Shown here piece after piece: positions 1-7,679 of a stretch of DNA of 64,000 bases. The translations under genes were made by a program, and so were the position numbers. Where the stretch lies: IMG/VR virus record IMGVR_UViG_3300045988_162215; one strand, 5' to 3'. Numbering within the stretch: the first letter of the stretch is position 1; each line of letters starts with the position of its first letter. The stretch comes from a virus. Under the pieces are notes generated by a model. The model had not been told where the DNA came from and ran no database searches. It saw nothing but the letters and a program-made list of their open reading frames with translations.

Positions 1-8
1 AATTAGCC

Positions 9-38
9 TTGACAAACTGCGGCTACCTGTGGTATAAT
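9..38 (+). promoter_or_regulatory. plus-strand sigma70 promoter A (TTGACA-18-TGgTATAAT, extended -10)
   Basis: cTTGACAaactgcggctacctgTGgTATAAT. Confidence 0.7.
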
Positions 39-71
39 ATTTCGGCGCGCCCCAACCGCAAGCGCGCCGCC

Positions 72-100
72 ATTATATCATATCAAAGGAACTTTGTCAA
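72..100 (-). promoter_or_regulatory. minus-strand sigma70 promoter facing promoter A (TTGACA-17-TATAAT)
   Basis: Reverse complement reads TTGACAaagttcctttgatatgaTATAAT; the two -10 elements are only 33 bp apart. Confidence 0.6.
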
Positions 101-110
101 GTTTAATTTC

Positions 111-145
111 AAAAAAAATAATGGTTTTTAACCATTATTTTTTAA
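111..145. terminator. bidirectional intrinsic terminator
   Basis: aaaaaaaataatggtttttaaccattatttttt. Confidence 0.7.
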
Positions 146-292
146 GTCGATGATGAATTTTCTTAACTCGGCTATTGTTACAGTAGGATTTCTCTTGATG
201 TAGCCAAGAATCTTGTCGCATGTTGCATTTTTTGATTTTTGGTTAGCCTGTTCTTTAAGATAATCGAAATTATAGTCATAATTCCAACCCAT
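128..292 (-). CDS. small winged-HTH-like protein (54 aa), not in ORF track
   Basis: ATG at 292 with SD aaaggag 8 nt upstream; translation MGWNYDYNFDYLKEQANQKSKNATCDKILGYIKRNPTVTIAELRKFIIDLKNNG; stop overlaps bidirectional terminator. Confidence 0.45.
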   Translation of the reverse strand: MGWNYDYNFDYLKEQANQKSKNATCDKILGYIKRNPTVTIAELRKFIIDLKNNG

Positions 293-307
293 TATTTAAT
301 GCTCCTT

Positions 308-571
308 TCAATTATCTGTTATGAGATTATCTTCTTCGATATAAAAATCTCCATCAAAAAAATCATTGAATTTGTTAATATTCCATGCCTTAATTTCTTC
401 TGGCTTGATTTCTAAAGCGTAAAGAGGGCGACTGTAATATTCTTCTCTGTCCCAAATTTCAAAATCTTCTGTTAACCACTTATTATCAATAAGAAATTGA
501 ACTGCGCTTTCGTAACTATCTGCTACTCCAAGTACGCCATGATTATCTTCATGAATAATATAAATTATCAT
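308..571 (-). CDS. hypothetical early protein (87 aa), paralog of 3548..3808
   Basis: Internal ATG (MIIYIIHEDNHG) with SD gaaagtgaggt; the track's longer ORF start would overlap promoter 597..625; shares ADSYE(N/S)A(I/V)Q..ID..WLT(D/E)D.E.W motif with ORF 3548..3808. Confidence 0.6.
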   Translation of the reverse strand: MIIYIIHEDNHGVLGVADSYESAVQFLIDNKWLTEDFEIWDREEYYSRPLYALEIKPEEIKAWNINKFNDFFDGDFYIEEDNLITDN

Positions 572-596
572 TTTGTTTACCTCACTTTCTATATCT

Positions 597-625
597 ATTA
601 TACCATAGGGTTGACTACTTGTCAA
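597..625 (-). promoter_or_regulatory. sigma70 consensus promoter (TTGACA-17-TATAAT); -35 lies inside palindrome GGGTTGAC..GTCAACCC
   Basis: Reverse complement gggTTGACAagtagtcaaccctatggTATAAT. Confidence 0.7.
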
Positions 626-848
626 CCCTATTTTTCAAACTAGGGTGGACTCTTCCAAACTGCTCAATCATGCGCTGGCGCATAGGCGAAGCCGCAATCA
701 GAGTCTTTGTTGCAATCTCAGGGTTTACAAGAATCGCTCTGTATTCTCCATGAATATCTTGTGCAGTTCTCTGTGCATGTTCAAGGGTTTTACGCTTTGC
801 AAATCCTACGCGCCCTGGCTTTGTTACCTTATAAATAACTTCTCTCAT
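615..848 (-). CDS. hypothetical early protein (77 aa, basic)
   Basis: ATG (MREVIYKV) preceded by agagaggtaa; the track's longer N-terminal extension is rejected because it overlaps the upstream small ORF in another frame. Confidence 0.5.
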   Translation of the reverse strand: MREVIYKVTKPGRVGFAKRKTLEHAQRTAQDIHGEYRAILVNPEIATKTLIAASPMRQRMIEQFGRVHPSLKNRVDK

Positions 849-865
849 ATTTATTACCTCTCTTT

Positions 866-1036
866 CTAATGCTTTCCAATAATTATTGCAATGATAAGGA
901 TTACAAGTGAAATACCCAATGGAATCCACAAAGGGGCAAACACCCAAATCCATGATATTGAAATTACTTTTACCAACTTCAAAACCAAAAGAATAATAAA
1001 CAACAAACCGCTAAAACTAATTCCACCTTTTTCCAT
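866..1036 (-). CDS. small membrane protein (56 aa, 2 predicted TM)
   Basis: ATG at 1036 with SD aaagaggtaatg; hydrophobic translation MEKGGISFSGLLFIILLVLKLVKVISISWIWVFAPLWIPLGISLVILIIAIIIGKH; downstream of promoter 1071..1099. Confidence 0.45.
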   Translation of the reverse strand: MEKGGISFSGLLFIILLVLKLVKVISISWIWVFAPLWIPLGISLVILIIAIIIGKH

Positions 1037-1070
1037 AATCATTACCTCTTTCTTTCTTTATTATATATTT

Positions 1071-1099
1071 ATTATAGCATTGTTTTTACTACTTGTCAA
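1071..1099 (-). promoter_or_regulatory. sigma70 consensus promoter
   Basis: Reverse complement TTGACAagtagtaaaaacaatgcTATAAT. Confidence 0.7.
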
Positions 1100-1114
1100 T
1101 ACTTTTTTTGAAAA

Positions 1115-5815: not shown

Positions 5816-6005
5816 ACATTGTAATCACATCATACCTTGTAACAATCTTCAGATGTCTGTCTGTGTTGATTGCCTGAAGTCTTGCAAGTTCCTTTTCAGC
5901 CTTTGCTCTCTCGATCGACTTTGTGTTATCATCAAAGTAATTTGTTCTTGTGAATACGAAATAGTTATCCTCGATTGTGAAATATGCAAGTGTTGTCTTA
6001 TTCAT
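5814..6005 (-). CDS. hypothetical early protein (63 aa)
   Basis: ORF track; variant of the conserved 5'UTR cassette; promoter 6060..6088. Confidence 0.55.
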   Translation of the reverse strand: MNKTTLAYFTIEDNYFVFTRTNYFDDNTKSIERAKAEKELARLQAINTDRHLKIVTRYDVITM

Positions 6006-6088
6006 AGTTATTTACCTTTAAGCCTTTTGTTTGGCTTTCCTTTCCTTATCTTTATACTTATTATAAGCCTTTTGTTGTTGTTTGTCAA
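6006..6088 (-). repeat. duplicated promoter + 5'UTR cassette (copy 3, diverged)
   Basis: As above. Confidence 0.5.
6060..6088 (-). promoter_or_regulatory. sigma70 consensus promoter
   Basis: Reverse complement TTGACAaacaacaacaaaaggctTATAAT. Confidence 0.7.
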
Positions 6089-6130
6089 GCTTTTTTTATA
6101 AATAAATTGTACTCTTTTAGTACTTTAACA

Positions 6131-6146
6131 CTTTAACGCACTAAAG
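6131..6146. repeat. palindromic motif CTTTAACGCACTAAAG (copy 2)
   Basis: As above. Confidence 0.7.
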
Positions 6147-6159
6147 CGTCAAGCACTAT

Positions 6160-6195
6160 TAAAGGCAAGGACTTGCGCCCTTGCCTTATTTTTAC
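6160..6195 (+). terminator. intrinsic terminator
   Basis: aaggcaagggacttgcgcccttgccttattttt (9-bp GC stem). Confidence 0.6.
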
Positions 6196-6197
6196 TT

Positions 6198-6434
6198 CTA
6201 CAAGTTGTTATTGATTGTCATTCTACCCAATCCACAAACGAAGTAGAAAAGTGAAGTTGTATCACCAGTAACTTCTGTCCAGCCATCCTCGCGAACTTCG
6301 ATTGACACATTGTGCTTTTCTGCAAAATACTCAAGTCCTGTAACCTGTGCCTCATCCTCTGTGTGGAAGAGAACCATGTCACTCATAACCTCAAACTCAA
6401 CGCCCTCAATATTCTGATACATTCTAAACTCCAT
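6198..6434 (-). CDS. hypothetical acidic early protein (78 aa)
   Basis: ORF track; conserved 5'UTR cassette; promoter 6485..6513. Confidence 0.55.
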   Translation of the reverse strand: MEFRMYQNIEGVEFEVMSDMVLFHTEDEAQVTGLEYFAEKHNVSIEVREDGWTEVTGDTTSLFYFVCGLGRMTINNNL

Positions 6435-6513
6435 AACTTTTTACCTTTAGCCTTTTGGCTTCCTTTCCTTTACCTTATGTACACATTATAAGCCTTTTTG
6501 GTTCATTTGTCAA
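6435..6513 (-). repeat. duplicated promoter + 5'UTR cassette (copy 4)
   Basis: As above. Confidence 0.6.
6485..6513 (-). promoter_or_regulatory. sigma70 consensus promoter
   Basis: Reverse complement TTGACAaatgaaccaaaaaggctTATAAT. Confidence 0.7.
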
Positions 6514-6568
6514 GTGTTTTTGTAAAAAAATTTTTATCATTTTCTTTACTTCTTTGCGCGCTTCAATG

Positions 6569-6584
6569 CTTTAACGCACTAAAG
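6569..6584. repeat. palindromic motif CTTTAACGCACTAAAG (copy 3)
   Basis: As above. Confidence 0.7.
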
Positions 6585-6625
6585 TGTTTGCCCCGCCTAA
6601 CCAGTGATTATGTAAAAATTAGTGC

Positions 6626-6654
6626 TTGACAAACTACGCATAGTATGGTATAAT
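6626..6654 (+). promoter_or_regulatory. plus-strand sigma70 promoter E
   Basis: cTTGACAaactacgcatagtatgGTATAAT. Confidence 0.7.
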
Positions 6655-6660
6655 GAATCT

Positions 6661-6790
6661 GAGATATAATGGGCGGGTGTATCTCGGGATGAGCCAGAGT
6701 GAGTTAGTCTAGCCTAACTTTCCTCGACAATTCCCTCTCCAAAAGTTATTTTGATTTCAAAAGACGGAATTTGTAAAAATCGTTGAGGTT
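6661..6790 (+). ncRNA. candidate non-coding transcript E, convergent with the Thg1-like gene
   Basis: Strong promoter; no ORF longer than 7 codons; local hairpins gagaua...uaucuc and guuag...cuaac. Confidence 0.4.
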
Positions 6791-6794
6791 AATA

Positions 6795-7679
6795 TTATTC
6801 CTCCTCAATAAAAATTAAATCTTCAATATACTTTCTACCTTCTCCTTTAAATATAGGAATTTCTTTATCTATAACCCAAGCTCTTTCTAATTTAGATGTA
6901 TCTCTAAGTCGTACTGTAGGTACAACTGTCTTTTTTCCACTAGGAAAAACAATTTGTTCTTTTTTTACAGTAATAACATTTTTTACACAACAAGAGCCTC
7001 TCTGACATTCTAAAGGAAGGCTATCCCAATCAATGCCTTTTTCTTTAAGCATTTCTTTTATATTCGCGCAAGACTTGCCTTGTAGCTCCTTATGGCTAAA
7101 GTTTGCTTGCCCAACTGCCTGAACTGAATTCCGCATAGCATCCAGCTGCCGCCAATAAATCAAATTAGCTACTTCTTCTTTTGGTATATTAAAACATCTT
7201 GCGTCAAACATTGCGCCTTTATCCATAGAACTACAATAAATTTTATATAAGTCAAATGGCATAGTACATTTTTTAGGAATATCATACCTATGAGCATAAT
7301 TATATGATACATTTTTTTCAAAAAATTTATTAAATGCTATTGTAGCCATACTTGCAGCAATACTACATACTTTCTGCACGTCATAATCAAACCACGCGGT
7401 GCTGGTTAAATTTTTATAATCCACTAATATAAGAGTAATTTCATCTGACTGAGTATATCCAAAAACACAACCTTGAATATTCTCACAAAGATACTGCATA
7501 GTTTCTTGCATTGACTTCATCAATATCTCATCAAAAGGTTTTTGAAACCCTTTTGTAAATGTATGAAAAGCGCGGCCGTCTATTCTAATGGCAACAGGAC
7601 ATCTGTGCATAAGGTGGATTTTAGGCGCGCTTTCATAAAAAGTTTTCATTCTAGTTCCTAAATCATCATGTACTGGCAT
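6795..7679 (-). CDS. Thg1-like protein (tRNA-His guanylyltransferase family 3'-5' nucleotidyltransferase)
   Basis: Translation carries hallmark Thg1 motifs: AIRIDGRAFHTF (cf. VVRLDGRNFHRF), QKPFD (cf. AKPND), GYTQSDEITLIL (catalytic SDE), YWRQLD (cf. SWRQAD). SD agagaggtacacatatATG. Confidence 0.75.
   Translation of the reverse strand: MPVHDDLGTRMKTFYESAPKIHLMHRCPVAIRIDGRAFHTFTKGFQKPFDEILMKSMQETMQYLCENIQGCVFGYTQSDEITLILVDYKNLTSTAWFDYDVQKVCSIAASMATIAFNKFFEKNVSYNYAHRYDIPKKCTMPFDLYKIYCSSMDKGAMFDARCFNIPKEEVANLIYWRQLDAMRNSVQAVGQANFSHKELQGKSCANIKEMLKEKGIDWDSLPLECQRGSCCVKNVITVKKEQIVFPSGKKTVVPTVRLRDTSKLERAWVIDKEIPIFKGEGRKYIEDLIFIEEE

Follow-up and report, generated by a model that had tools for sequence, protein, structure and literature searches.

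Phages lambda and P22 make non-coding transcripts of ~70-80 nt, OOP and sar respectively, each of which runs against an early operon from a constitutive host promoter of its own; OOP stops at a dedicated terminator and covers the 3' end of cII, and the sar promoter faces Pant. We describe here a set of plus-strand units in a stretch of viral DNA of 64,000 nucleotides (hereafter the window) that resemble OOP and sar in that a short non-coding RNA, predicted to start at its own promoter, is opposed to early genes. Whereas OOP and sar are single-copy and have a defined target gene, the units occur in 4-7 copies per genome and combine a dedicated, conserved promoter class with an inverted repeat upstream and a GC-rich module at the 5' end of the RNA, and their overlap with the converging mRNA is perhaps merely the terminator. 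No sequence or Rfam relationship of the units to OOP or sar was found.

Two of the units, A and B, form a subtype that recalls pIN/pOUT of IS10, RNA I/RNA II of ColE1 and CopA of R1, with promoters placed face to face and predicted transcripts that overlap at their 5' ends in a stretch that folds into a stable stem-loop. At ~21 nt, the 5' overlap of the A/B subtype is shorter than those of IS10 (36 nt) and ColE1 (108 nt), and, unlike in the IS10 and plasmid pairs, no ORF follows the minus-strand partner for >150 nt.

By analogy, the units may also be compared with lambda PR'-tR' (6S RNA, Q antitermination) and HK022 put, which would share with them a strong constitutive promoter, a short terminated transcript, conserved promoter-proximal elements and a direction toward the late genes. 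Relative to PR'-tR', the units have no -10-like pause element in the initial transcribed region and are numerous and as far as 10 kb upstream, with antisense genes in between; no Q-like gene was identified. In cluster A mycobacteriophages, the stoperators are repressor sites of 13 bp that contain no promoter; the units resemble them as many short, oriented regulatory sites across intergenic gaps whose direction is fixed with respect to transcription, but each unit copy is a complete promoter plus transcribed module. The PeSLs of T4-type phages are promoter-terminator cassettes serving the ORFs that they flank, and the likeness lies in a short, conserved, multi-copy promoter and stem-loop between small early ORFs, in plastic regions and at mosaic junctions (PMC2839356, PMC4122927). 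Unlike PeSLs, the units run opposite to all genes around them and serve no ORF; the closer PeSL analogue is the set of minus-strand gene promoters in the window.

Plus-strand promoters of the early region

A motif scan identified 27 perfect-consensus promoters in the 64-kb window, and its first 8.6 kb hold 23 of them, of which 18 are minus-strand promoters that each precede one tiny, RBS-preceded early gene and five (A-E) are plus-strand promoters. With a looser definition, the window contains 74 promoter-like sites, compared with 40.3 +/- 6.3 in shuffles. The first-pass annotation had described A-E as a family of five promoters for small RNAs interleaved antisense among the early genes. All five are present where it placed them, each with TTGACA/TG/TATAAT, 12/12 hexamer matches and the TG extension, and it was right that no RBS-bearing ORF follows any of them on the plus strand. 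The antisense interleaving stands insofar as the promoters oppose the neighbouring genes; the units themselves are intergenic and would overlap coding sequence only on readthrough. Each of A-E occupies its own gap of 200-330 bp, opposite a converging gene whose 3' end it faces, and ~5 of the ~25 intergenic gaps in the window contain a unit.

We searched the 64 kb with a family profile built solely from unrelated metagenome copies, with the window excluded. The matches were A-D only, all on the plus strand, and included 0 of the ~18 perfect minus-strand promoters. Common to A-D are an 18-nt GC-rich spacer, TGTGGTATAAT, an (A/T)TTTCGG discriminator and a G start, and their first 20-35 transcribed nt are GC-rich. 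In the window, an inverted repeat, TTGCACAA..CGGGA..TTGTGCAA, precedes the promoters of units B and C; that of unit A falls beyond the window start and is found in relatives L002 and L003, and a clear copy was not found at unit D. This repeat with its CGGGA centre is probably a protein-binding site. A-D are a distinct promoter class, consisting of real, related, non-coding, promoter-driven units, and for these four the earlier claim that the protein annotation fails to explain them is correct.

Architecture of individual units

The features of units A and B are as follows (transcript starts and ends, here and below, are predicted):

9..38, plus strand: unit A promoter (TTGACA, 18 nt, TG, TATAAT; profile E = 6e-12, match clipped by the window start)
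44..146, plus strand: unit A RNA, ~100 nt, predicted start G45
44-50 paired with 62-68, plus strand: unit A 5' GC hairpin, predicted fold
72..100, minus strand: promoter facing unit A, perfect, 12/12; -10 boxes 33 bp apart
113-143: unit A bidirectional terminator (A-tract/hairpin/U-tract), common to the converging gene 128-292 (minus strand)
2119..2165, no strand: unit B upstream inverted repeat, with three perfect DnaA boxes as its arms
2184..2213, plus strand: unit B promoter; family profile E = 4e-21
2219..2391, plus strand: unit B transcribed region, predicted start G2220; GC block 2219-2247
2248..2276, minus strand: promoter facing unit B, 11/12; 34 bp between -10 boxes
2351..2323, minus strand: second promoter facing unit B, perfect

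The 5' architecture that A and B had been said to share proved to be more specific, in that each faces a minus-strand promoter. A GC-rich palindrome of 33-34 bp is all that parts the two facing -10 boxes, so two polymerases cannot bind together. For unit A, the two predicted transcripts overlap by ~21 nt across this palindrome, and its RNA (MFE -24.7, z -4.2; hairpin z -2.6) is 95-96% identical in L002/L003. The DnaA boxes at unit B (TTATCCACA at 2119 and 2131, TGTGGATAA at 2157; repeat loop TTTCGGGA) are the sole ones in the 64 kb, and L002, L003 and L140 conserve them. The unit B region crosses both facing promoters up to a hairpin at 2370-2391, ~150-170 nt from the B start, which is the terminator of gene 2388-2576 (minus strand) and is without a plus-strand U-tract. 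No ORF lies between the minus-strand promoters at 2248..2276 and 2351..2323 and the respective next promoter. Unit B is 94% identical in relatives, though the flanking genes there are replaced, and the face-to-face subtype is kept as far as phage Phass-1 (portal 40% identical).

Units C and D have these features:

4690..4735, no strand: unit C upstream inverted repeat, AAATTGCACAATTTCGGGATTG...AAATTTGTGCAAATTT, which fits the family consensus
4743..4772, plus strand: unit C promoter; family profile E = 1e-20
4779..4892, plus strand: unit C RNA, ~113 nt, predicted start G4779
4784-4800, 4838-4853 and 4868-4889: within unit C, the 17-nt block, a palindrome (CTTTAACGCGCTAAAG) and a bidirectional terminator
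5717..5746, plus strand: unit D promoter, TGTGCTATAAT, discriminator AGTTCGG; family profile E = 4e-9
5753..5815, plus strand: unit D RNA, at least 60 nt, predicted start G5753
5758-5774, 5767-5772/5781-5786 and 5792-5812: within unit D, the 17-nt block, the first hairpin and, after an A-tract, the second hairpin

The 17-nt block attributed to both units, CAGACCAAGTGTTCGAT, is exact at 4784-4800 and 5758-5774; no further copy occurs elsewhere in the window, even with 3 mismatches, and 0 of 100 shuffles contained two or more matches. Beyond the two close relatives, the 17-mer has only chance matches, which fall within coding sequence. The unit C promoter is 97-100% identical in relatives, and in L002/L003 the unit C terminator and converging gene are replaced, yet a hairpin is retained. 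The second hairpin of unit D is the terminator of gene 5814-6005 (minus strand) and has a poor plus-strand tail. The unit D RNA folds with an MFE of -16.9 (z -3.5), and units B and C individually fold no better than shuffles.

The family of five does not hold, as promoter E is no member; it differs in spacer, discriminator and RNA:

6626..6654, plus strand: promoter E, 17-nt spacer, TATGGTATAAT, discriminator GAATCT; profile E = 0.8, outside the A-D family
6661..6770, plus strand: candidate RNA E, 3' end undefined
6661-6668/6678-6685, 6701-6720 and 6716-6741: within RNA E, the 5' hairpin, the hairpin AGTTAG..CTAACT and a CU-rich stretch

RNA E is 83-87% identical in L002/L003, where three stem positions are altered one-sidedly and pairing is kept via G.U on the plus strand. 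We regard E as a separate, lineage-specific small-RNA candidate.

The first-pass annotation had also placed a hairpin or terminator within 60-130 nt of every promoter. Units A and C do end in a hairpin with a plus-strand U-tract; the hairpins that follow B, D and E (that of E at ~6762-6790) are the terminators of converging genes and have the U-tract on the minus strand. A convincing plus-strand terminator is thus confined to A and C, and the small-RNA reading is secure at best for these two.

A wider family in gut and rumen phages

Matches to the unit family were found in at least 120 metagenome stretches, with at least 216 profile matches in at least 106 loci yielding at least 193 non-redundant units, which lie in more than 100 rumen and gut phage contigs; family units are also present in Phass-1 and ~11 Clostridia-type MAG contigs. 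The Rfam search that the first-pass annotation had proposed returned no family matching the units, and no description of such units was found in the searchable literature. A-D are part of a large, apparently undescribed family in big gut and rumen Firmicutes phages.

A locus holds up to 7 units, all on the same strand among the matches listed. RBS-preceded ORFs lie mainly on the strand opposite to the units in 14 of 14 multi-unit loci, and in every locus containing a phage sigma gene (15/15) the units are upstream of it and co-oriented. A loose test for an RBS and start was passed by 15 of 193 units, and ~4 of these 15 read as credible genes. The hairpin common to the converging gene lies a median of 68 nt downstream of the unit, and a plus-strand U-tract is present in just 36 of 193 units. 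Between the window and two relatives, units are 94-100% identical and neighbouring genes are 70-93% identical or replaced outright; as the units are more conserved than the neighbouring early genes, we consider them to be under purifying selection.

Possible functions of the units

Judging from sequence, cis-antisense, host-targeting and replication-primer roles are all possible. As a best explanation, which we advance tentatively, A-D may be countertranscripts driven by host RNA polymerase, with the 5' hairpin as a stabiliser, whose effect on early transcription would be to damp it, insulate it or shut it off. The cassette, here termed a countertranscript unit, would comprise the upstream inverted repeat, an unusually strong promoter of the host sigma-A type and a 5' module of ~22 nt that is GC-rich and tends to form a stem at the very 5' end; the promoter has an 18-nt GC-rich spacer, a TGTGG extension, a TTTCGG discriminator and a G start. 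Placed where an early transcription unit ends, the cassette would fire head-on against that unit, and host polymerase would yield a short non-coding RNA, stabilised by its 5' hairpin, that ends at a shared bidirectional terminator (A, C) or reads into the converging gene (B, D and most members). In the converging early mRNA, the complement of such an RNA would be the 3' hairpin with its U-tract or, on readthrough, the mRNA body, and the transcribing polymerase would collide with or occlude oncoming polymerases; in the A/B subtype, direct overlap with the facing promoter would result in mutual promoter exclusion. By the antisense or interference action that we infer, early transcription would be damped, insulated or shut off in time, and we infer further that the timing may be set by a factor at the upstream repeat, which for unit B would be host DnaA.

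Most early genes would escape this control because so few gaps have a unit, and, given the good plus-strand terminators of A and C, overlap with the converging mRNA is there just the ~30-nt terminator. Pure cis-antisense action also leaves unexplained the +1..+21 sequence pattern, which is weak yet fixed in position, the C/D 17-mer (with diverged spacers) and the L107 5' block. A promoter far more conserved than the RNA, together with the lack of an RNAalifold structure, would also fit a DNA-level function.

The 5' blocks are what a trans-acting sRNA would explain, with a genome-specific ~22-nt 5' module (a seed or protein handle) joined to any 3' hairpin and aimed at a host or phage RNA or at a protein, a reading that we consider unlikely. 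The identical 17-mer occupies +6..+22 in C and D despite differing spacers and 3' hairpins, four L107 units share GCTTGACTCAGCCGGTAACTAAAAA and then have four different hairpins, three L138/L094 units share CCCGAACG..CGTTCGGG, and within-genome identity is raised solely in +2..+23 (0.50-0.52 vs 0.33-0.35 between genomes), with background beyond +24. The plus strand is also biased toward folding, a signal that counts in favour of the countertranscript reading as well: +1..+36 beats its reverse complement in 102 of 151 units vs 46 (Wilcoxon p = 2e-6), exceeding a composition control (p = 7e-5), and 61% of units vs 38% of shuffles have a stable stem starting within 3 nt of the 5' end. However, no complement to the 17-mer exists in the 64-kb window at <=3 mismatches, a duplex scan of the window for a trans target gave no outstanding site, strict antisense orientation would be unnecessary, most units lack a plus-strand U-tract, and the within-genome excess of block over promoter spacer is small (0.45 vs 0.37) and could be produced by duplication or gene conversion. 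The folding excess and 5'-terminal stems, which point to RNA selection, speak against a function of the DNA itself, which we regard as doubtful; by analogy, the unit would be a high-occupancy docking site for host polymerase, serving as a head-on roadblock or insulator behind early terminators or as a sink, with the RNA a by-product. Promoter-escape work (T5 N25 vs N25anti) leads us to expect tight binding and poor escape where consensus -35, extended -10 and -10 elements precede a GC-clamped initial transcribed region. Consistent with docking, conservation peaks in and around the promoter rather than in the RNA, and at features fixed in position (CG peaks at -2, +9/+10, +13 and +19, GG at -75/-74, roughly one helical turn apart), and RNAalifold finds no structure common to the family. 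The 5' module conserves GC-richness (~60% in a 32% GC genome), not sequence. Units also stand directly behind the converging gene's terminator, and joint occupancy is impossible in the A/B subtype; however, genome-specific 5' blocks would be superfluous for docking, and there is no evident need to insulate neighbouring early units from each other.

T4 oriF/oriG and ColE1 RNA II promoters prime or activate DNA replication, and the three perfect DnaA boxes directly upstream of unit B, the likeness of the convergent promoter pair to plasmid primer/countertranscript origins and the aim of all units toward the bulk of the genome suggest a similar role, in which a stable R-loop of the GC-rich 5' RNA would arise beside AT-rich DNA and unit B would be a host-DnaA-dependent origin. 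We find this improbable, as perfect DnaA boxes occur in just 4 of 193 units (the unit B homologues), 5-7 origins in one early region would be unusual, no initiator gene or iterons are tied to the units, and a persistent RNA-DNA hybrid would favour G over C, an excess that the 5' module does not have (G 0.32, C 0.29). The T7 A1-A3 promoters are strong host promoters that act as genome-entry transcription motors. That the units, as strong host promoters in a first-entering region and aimed into the genome, reel in DNA by relay in this manner, or are mere conserved recombination linkers for cassette exchange, seems highly improbable to us. An orientation always toward sigma and the late genes, multiple copies at ~0.4-2 kb spacing and the missing plus-strand terminator of most units would suit a motor, whereas the plus-strand terminators of A and C look efficient; the ends of units C and E coincide with two homology breakpoints between the window and L001, but most mosaic breakpoints are at minus-strand gene promoters and not at the units. 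Both ideas leave the 5' module and upstream repeat unexplained.

Several of the minus-strand gene promoters in the window have a hairpin that embraces the -35.

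Plus-strand promoter units in the early region

The window phage is large and siphovirus-like, with a low-GC Gram-positive host and a GC content of ~32%. Its portal protein shares 40% identity with the portal of Phass-1, an uncultured human-gut phage, and 32% with those of Enterococcus Schiekvirus phages. The close relatives are the IMG/VR contigs IMGVR_UViG_3300045988_162434 (loci L001/L002) and _151163 (loci L003/L068), which are mosaic with respect to the window at 70-100% nucleotide identity; a megablast search of INPHARED for cultured relatives returned no match. The early region (1-8.6 kb) holds ~25 small genes on the minus strand, with 18 perfect TTGACA-17-TATAAT minus-strand promoters, one ahead of each of 18 small genes, that have 17-nt AT-rich spacers, AT-rich discriminators and A starts. 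No late-promoter motif was apparent by eye upstream of the late genes, and ARAGORN called no tRNA in the window. The features needed for what follows are:

Window: annotated genes for a tape measure protein (2871 aa), portal, terminase large subunit and DNA polymerase
8649-9734, plus strand: phage sigma factor (phrog_5767); in 15 other loci, homologues delimit the early region that carries the units
6795-7679, minus strand: Thg1-like tRNA-His guanylyltransferase (3'-5' nucleotidyl transferase; phrog_4717, E = 3e-82)
2119-2165: upstream inverted repeat of unit B, consisting of three perfect DnaA boxes (TTATCCACA twice, TGTGGATAA once)

The sigma factor gene has a perfect host-type promoter at 8592-8620, and the final ~45 residues of its product also match zinc-ribbon/HNH-type families.

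The first-pass annotation had proposed a family of five plus-strand promoters, A-E, giving rise to small RNAs antisense among these early genes. We recovered all five promoters (9..38, 2184..2213, 4743..4772, 5717..5746 and 6626..6654), each with a 12/12 hexamer match and the TG extension, so that every one has the form of a sigma-70/sigma-A extended -10 promoter (TTGACA, a spacer of 17 ± 1 nt, TG one base before the -10 and TATAAT). As had also been claimed, none is followed in the window by a plus-strand ORF preceded by a ribosome-binding site (RBS). Promoters A-D share a cTTGACAA -35 region, an 18-nt GC-rich spacer, TGTGG or TGTGC followed by TATAAT, and a GC-rich transcribed block; their discriminator, (A/T)(T/G)TTCGG, predicts a G start. 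The spacer of E is 17 nt long, like those of all the minus-strand gene promoters.

The family comprises four members rather than five. We built a profile of 120 columns (-80..+40) from 100 non-redundant metagenome copies, with the window excluded, and it matched A (E = 6e-12, partial at the window start), B (4e-21), C (1e-20) and D (4e-9), all on the plus strand. Promoter E scored 0.8, and none of the minus-strand promoters was significant (best minus-strand match, E = 0.13). Promoter E is thus an unrelated small-RNA candidate; three positions of its stem differ in L002/L003, on one side only, with pairing kept through G.U on the plus strand. We rejected an anti-Shine-Dalgarno role for the E RNA, as the match of its CU-rich core to 26 early ribosome-binding regions was equalled or beaten by 26 of 200 shuffled cores. 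Direct repeats, CAAAAGT(T/A)TTTTnAAATTC...AAAAG(A/C)G, lie downstream of E at 6745-6790, and two distant loci without an E promoter (L160, ~6363-6476; L184, ~10372-10501) have similar repeats in the corresponding place ahead of the sigma gene.

The units do oppose the neighbouring ORFs, but they are intergenic, each in its own gap and facing the stop codon of a converging gene that lies 61-168 nt from the predicted start (A-E). The claim that a hairpin or terminator follows each promoter holds on the plus strand for A (113-143) and C (4868-4889), which have an A-tract/hairpin/U-tract terminator fit for that strand, within the ~50-300 nt expected of an independent small-RNA gene. After B, D and E the hairpin has its U-tract on the minus strand only and is the terminator of the converging minus-strand gene. 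A predicted overlap with a converging gene's terminator hairpin is common to all five, and A and B also overlap the predicted 5' ends of the facing transcripts by ~21 nt; all transcript ends behind these overlaps are predictions. The converging genes (128-292, 2388-2576, 4891-5130 and 5814-6005) encode hydrophilic products (GRAVY -0.36 to -0.80), and we rejected a type I toxin-antitoxin arrangement on this basis.

The 5' architecture that A and B had been said to share is real and more specific than described, in that each is paired face to face with a second promoter. Within a pair, a GC-rich palindrome lies between the -10 boxes, which are 33-34 bp apart; overlap of the predicted transcripts is therefore ~21 nt, and two polymerases cannot bind together. 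An inverted repeat, TTGCACAA/TTATCCACAA ... TTTCGGGA ... TTGTGCAA/TTGTGGATAA, lies upstream of B and C; that of A is present in L002/L003, whose sequence runs beyond the window start, and within the window D lacks a clear copy. The DnaA boxes at B are the only ones in 64 kb, are kept in L002, L003 and locus L140, and give B, alone among the units of the window, the DnaA-box cluster of a DnaA-dependent origin.

Units C and D carry the exact 17-mer reported for them (4784-4800 and 5758-5774); it is unique to these sites in the window, and no shuffle contained two matches. It does not extend to a wider motif: CAGACCANNTGTTCGAT occurs in 45 IMG/VR stretches, and outside the two close relatives all are chance matches or lie inside coding sequence. 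We also discarded phage-internal targets of the 17-mer, since no complement was present in the 64-kb window at up to 3 mismatches.

Distribution and conservation of the unit family

A metagenome scan with a pattern restricted to the extended -10 and discriminator (TGTGGTATAATNTTTCGG) matched at least 120 stretches; those listed came mostly from contigs whose MAG counterparts carry rumen or gut labels. About 100 of the 122 listed matches had features beyond the pattern, namely the -35 context, an upstream repeat with GGGA, and a GC-rich block followed by an A-rich stretch and hairpin. Among the matches listed, the profile search gave 216 matches in 106 loci, corresponding to 193 non-redundant units, with up to seven units per listed locus and always on one strand. 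RBS-preceded ORFs lay mainly on the opposite strand in all 14 multi-unit loci. A sigma homologue (40-63% identity to that of the window) was found in 15 loci, and in every one, as in the window, the units are upstream of the sigma gene and point at it. The pattern was rare in bacterial genome collections (85 stretches in 596 Gb), where full units occurred in only ~11 MAG contigs, mostly Clostridia (Ruminococcus, Acutalibacteraceae, Oscillospiraceae), which are probably binned phage contigs.

A blastn search for unit sharing identified only Phass-1 and one faecal contig. The 128-135 kb stretch of Phass-1 (OQ749652.1; a phage classified in the code-15 clade, with TAG recoded) is our locus L212, and it has a terminated unit at L212:16867 and face-to-face units at L212:12662 and 14865, which indicates that the face-to-face arrangement is old. 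Several annotated plus-strand CDSs in the Phass-1 early region begin inside unit promoters, and the CDSs annotated after units have no PHROG match; these may therefore be mis-annotations. The paper describing Phass-1 (PMC10607447) makes no mention of promoters, small RNAs or units.

We also noted tRNA genes near some units:

L002 19760-19977, minus strand of L002, beyond the left end of the window as oriented here: tRNA-Trp and a 137-nt tRNA carrying a long insert (Rfam RF00005, 45 bits)

The 137-nt tRNA was missed by ARAGORN. A third face-to-face unit, A', lies in L002 to the left of the window and points at this pair, and early-region tRNA genes are also on the gene strand, opposed to units, in five other loci.

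Across the family, 15 of 193 units passed a loose test for an RBS and start codon, and on reading about four of these look like credible genes. The hairpin lies at a median of 68 nt from the predicted start, and its U-tract is on the gene (minus) strand only in 93 of the 193 units, bidirectional in 13 and on the plus strand only in 23; in a further 16 a facing promoter is the first or only element reached, and 48 are without a hairpin by the criteria used. These counts indicate that the typical unit abuts the terminator of the converging gene, and many units would read through into that gene. Because the units oppose all neighbouring ORFs in the window, as in the 14 multi-unit loci, we rejected the T4-type PeSL cassette, in which a promoter and stem-loop serve, and are co-oriented with, the flanked ORFs. 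A link to Thg1 was likewise discarded, as none of the metagenome loci with units had a Thg1 homologue near them, versus a sigma gene in 15. In 43 more distant Thg1-bearing phage loci we found essentially no perfect sigma-70 promoters, and no units save one weak match. The 46 IMG/VR phage loci with Thg1 homologues belong mostly to a different, ~190-kb phage group without sigma-70-type promoters.

Compared with its two relatives, the window has 96-100% identity in the promoter and upstream region and 94-95% in the RNAs, while its flanking early genes match at 70-93% or have been exchanged altogether. Family-wide, the promoter is near-invariant and the transcribed part is variable, with signal limited to the first ~22 nt. 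This 5' module is ~60% GC across the family and has a loose, position-fixed pattern (CG at +9/+10, +13 and +19; GG at -75/-74) with a spacing of roughly one helical turn. Units within a genome resemble each other more than units of different genomes (similarity 0.50-0.52 vs 0.33-0.35), falling to background after +24. The C/D 17-mer is one case of such sharing; in L107 a 25-nt block common to four units precedes a different hairpin in each, CCCGAACG..CGTTCGGG recurs among L138/L094 units, and A and A' share GGCGCGCC stems. A resemblance of 5' modules to the 16S 530 loop or tRNA D-arms was noticed, from which we make no claim, and some GC hairpins may resemble type I-C or VI-D CRISPR repeats, as would an RNA anti-CRISPR or CRISPR-repeat mimic.

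Generic strand-specific signals are present in the RNA, despite the absence of a common fold. RNAalifold predicted 0 pairs across 64 diverse 5' modules, and B and C individually folded no better than shuffles. Over +1..+36, however, 102 units folded more stably as the plus strand than as its reverse complement, vs 46 with the opposite bias (Wilcoxon p = 2e-6), with a folding excess of -0.95 kcal/mol vs -0.31 from base composition (p = 7e-5), and 61% of units, vs 38% of shuffles, had a stable stem starting no more than 3 nt from the 5' end. We rejected pairing of the promoter spacer with the 5' RNA: the longest complementary run was no longer than for mismatched units (4.02 vs 4.00), and no columns covaried. 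The Rfam search that the first-pass annotation had suggested yielded no matching family, giving only noise over window positions 1-9000 at E <= 1 and, at gathering score, only tRNAs in thirteen related loci, all on the gene strand.

Possible roles of the units

We conclude that the first-pass observation was real and for the most part correctly described, and that A-D are four copies of a widespread, apparently undescribed, antisense-oriented promoter cassette, the function of which we infer. Our searches of the literature on the motif, on phage antisense RNAs and on convergent promoters found no description of the units, which resemble known phage countertranscripts (OOP, sar, RNA-OUT-type promoter pairs) but belong to no described family.

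The reading that we tentatively favour for A-D, based on predicted transcript ends, is countertranscription. Starting from the very strong unit promoter, host polymerase would meet the end of an early transcription unit head-on and yield a 5'-stabilised non-coding RNA with complementarity to the early mRNA, at its 3' hairpin and U-tract or, on read-through, in its body. In Bacillus, a 5'-terminal stem-loop shields RNA from 5'-end-dependent decay, and the unit 5' stem may provide the same protection. The unit polymerase would also collide with or occlude oncoming polymerases, and at A and B would directly exclude the facing promoter. The upstream repeat may bind a factor that sets timing, its arms in B being the three DnaA boxes. 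Countertranscription would account for the strict orientation, position, non-coding nature and promoter conservation of the units and for the RNA bias. It leaves the genome-specific 5' blocks and the position-fixed CG pattern unexplained.

Trans-acting small RNAs in which the 5' module serves as a seed or handle would fit the genome-specific blocks, but we consider this reading unlikely; no trans target of A-E was outstanding in the 64-kb window, where self-antisense sites alone stood out. We give a similarly low probability to DNA-level polymerase docking or roadblock elements of which the RNA is a by-product. An elaborated form, which we also doubt to this degree, speaks to the CG pattern: the units would be phage-built docking elements of DNA rather than RNA genes, in which escape-limited consensus promoters are clamped by a GC-rich initial transcribed region and CGG/CG motifs are helically phased (-75, -2, +9/10, +19) for a putative factor. 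Placed head-on behind early terminators, they would steer host RNA polymerase traffic as programmable roadblocks or insulators or, alternatively, act as a relay reeling the genome towards sigma and the late genes. Replication priming or an origin, which would apply mainly to B with its DnaA boxes, is distinctly improbable, and entry motors or recombination linkers appear more improbable still.

Transcription in large gut and rumen Firmicutes phages is almost unstudied, and the unit offers a recurring, readily recognised signature of their early regions; it is more tightly constrained than the early genes and always directed against them. Should the units be countertranscripts or roadblocks, they would represent a general phage means to time or shut off host-polymerase early expression without a dedicated protein; should the 5' modules be genome-specific seeds or handles, they would form a large new pool of phage small RNAs. 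In metagenomic contigs from this phage group, the profile can show where the early region lies and which way it is oriented, and the unit promoters are candidates for compact, very strong parts in Clostridia.

Other elements of the early region

Two further predicted RNA features lie on the minus strand of the early region:

3283-3331, minus strand: tRNA-like minihelix in the 5' UTR of gene 3047-3208 (acceptor-like stem GGGATA/TATCCC, small hairpin, T-arm AAGAG-TTCGATT-CTCTT, discriminator A)
3380-3487, minus strand: predicted non-coding, strongly structured RNA of ~105 nt (promoter 3521..3493, 11/12; MFE -31.8, z -3.95; no ORF ahead of the next promoter)

The minihelix was called by neither ARAGORN nor Rfam; the segment around it (3240-3490) is 98% identical in L002, and the Thg1-like gene is 3.5 kb away.

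Several minus-strand gene promoters have a hairpin embracing the -35 box (601-630, 1719-1738, 2620-2645, 2888-2915 and 4312-4335; e.g. GGGGTTGACAaatcTCAACCCC). As a T-tract follows on the plus strand, we read these hairpins either as terminators for that strand or as PeSL-like promoter-stem-loop cassettes. It is at promoters with a hairpin around the -35 that most breaks in homology to L001 fall. The early mRNA leaders after the minus-strand promoters at 6513, 6088, 5207 and 4053 carry a near-identical sequence, ggaaaggaaGCCaaaaGGCtaaagg, which is a small hairpin directly before the ribosome-binding site.

Finally, a palindrome, CTTTAACGC(G/A)CTAAAG, occurs at 4838-4853, 6131-6146 and 6569-6584, always in non-coding DNA of the 4.8-6.6 kb stretch and once within the unit C RNA, and arrays of it lie downstream of a unit in locus L206. 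Other phages have different palindromes 3' of units, AGTTAG-N6-CTAACT and TTGTTAA-N4-TTAACAA, the latter of which matches the clostridial Rex-box consensus.
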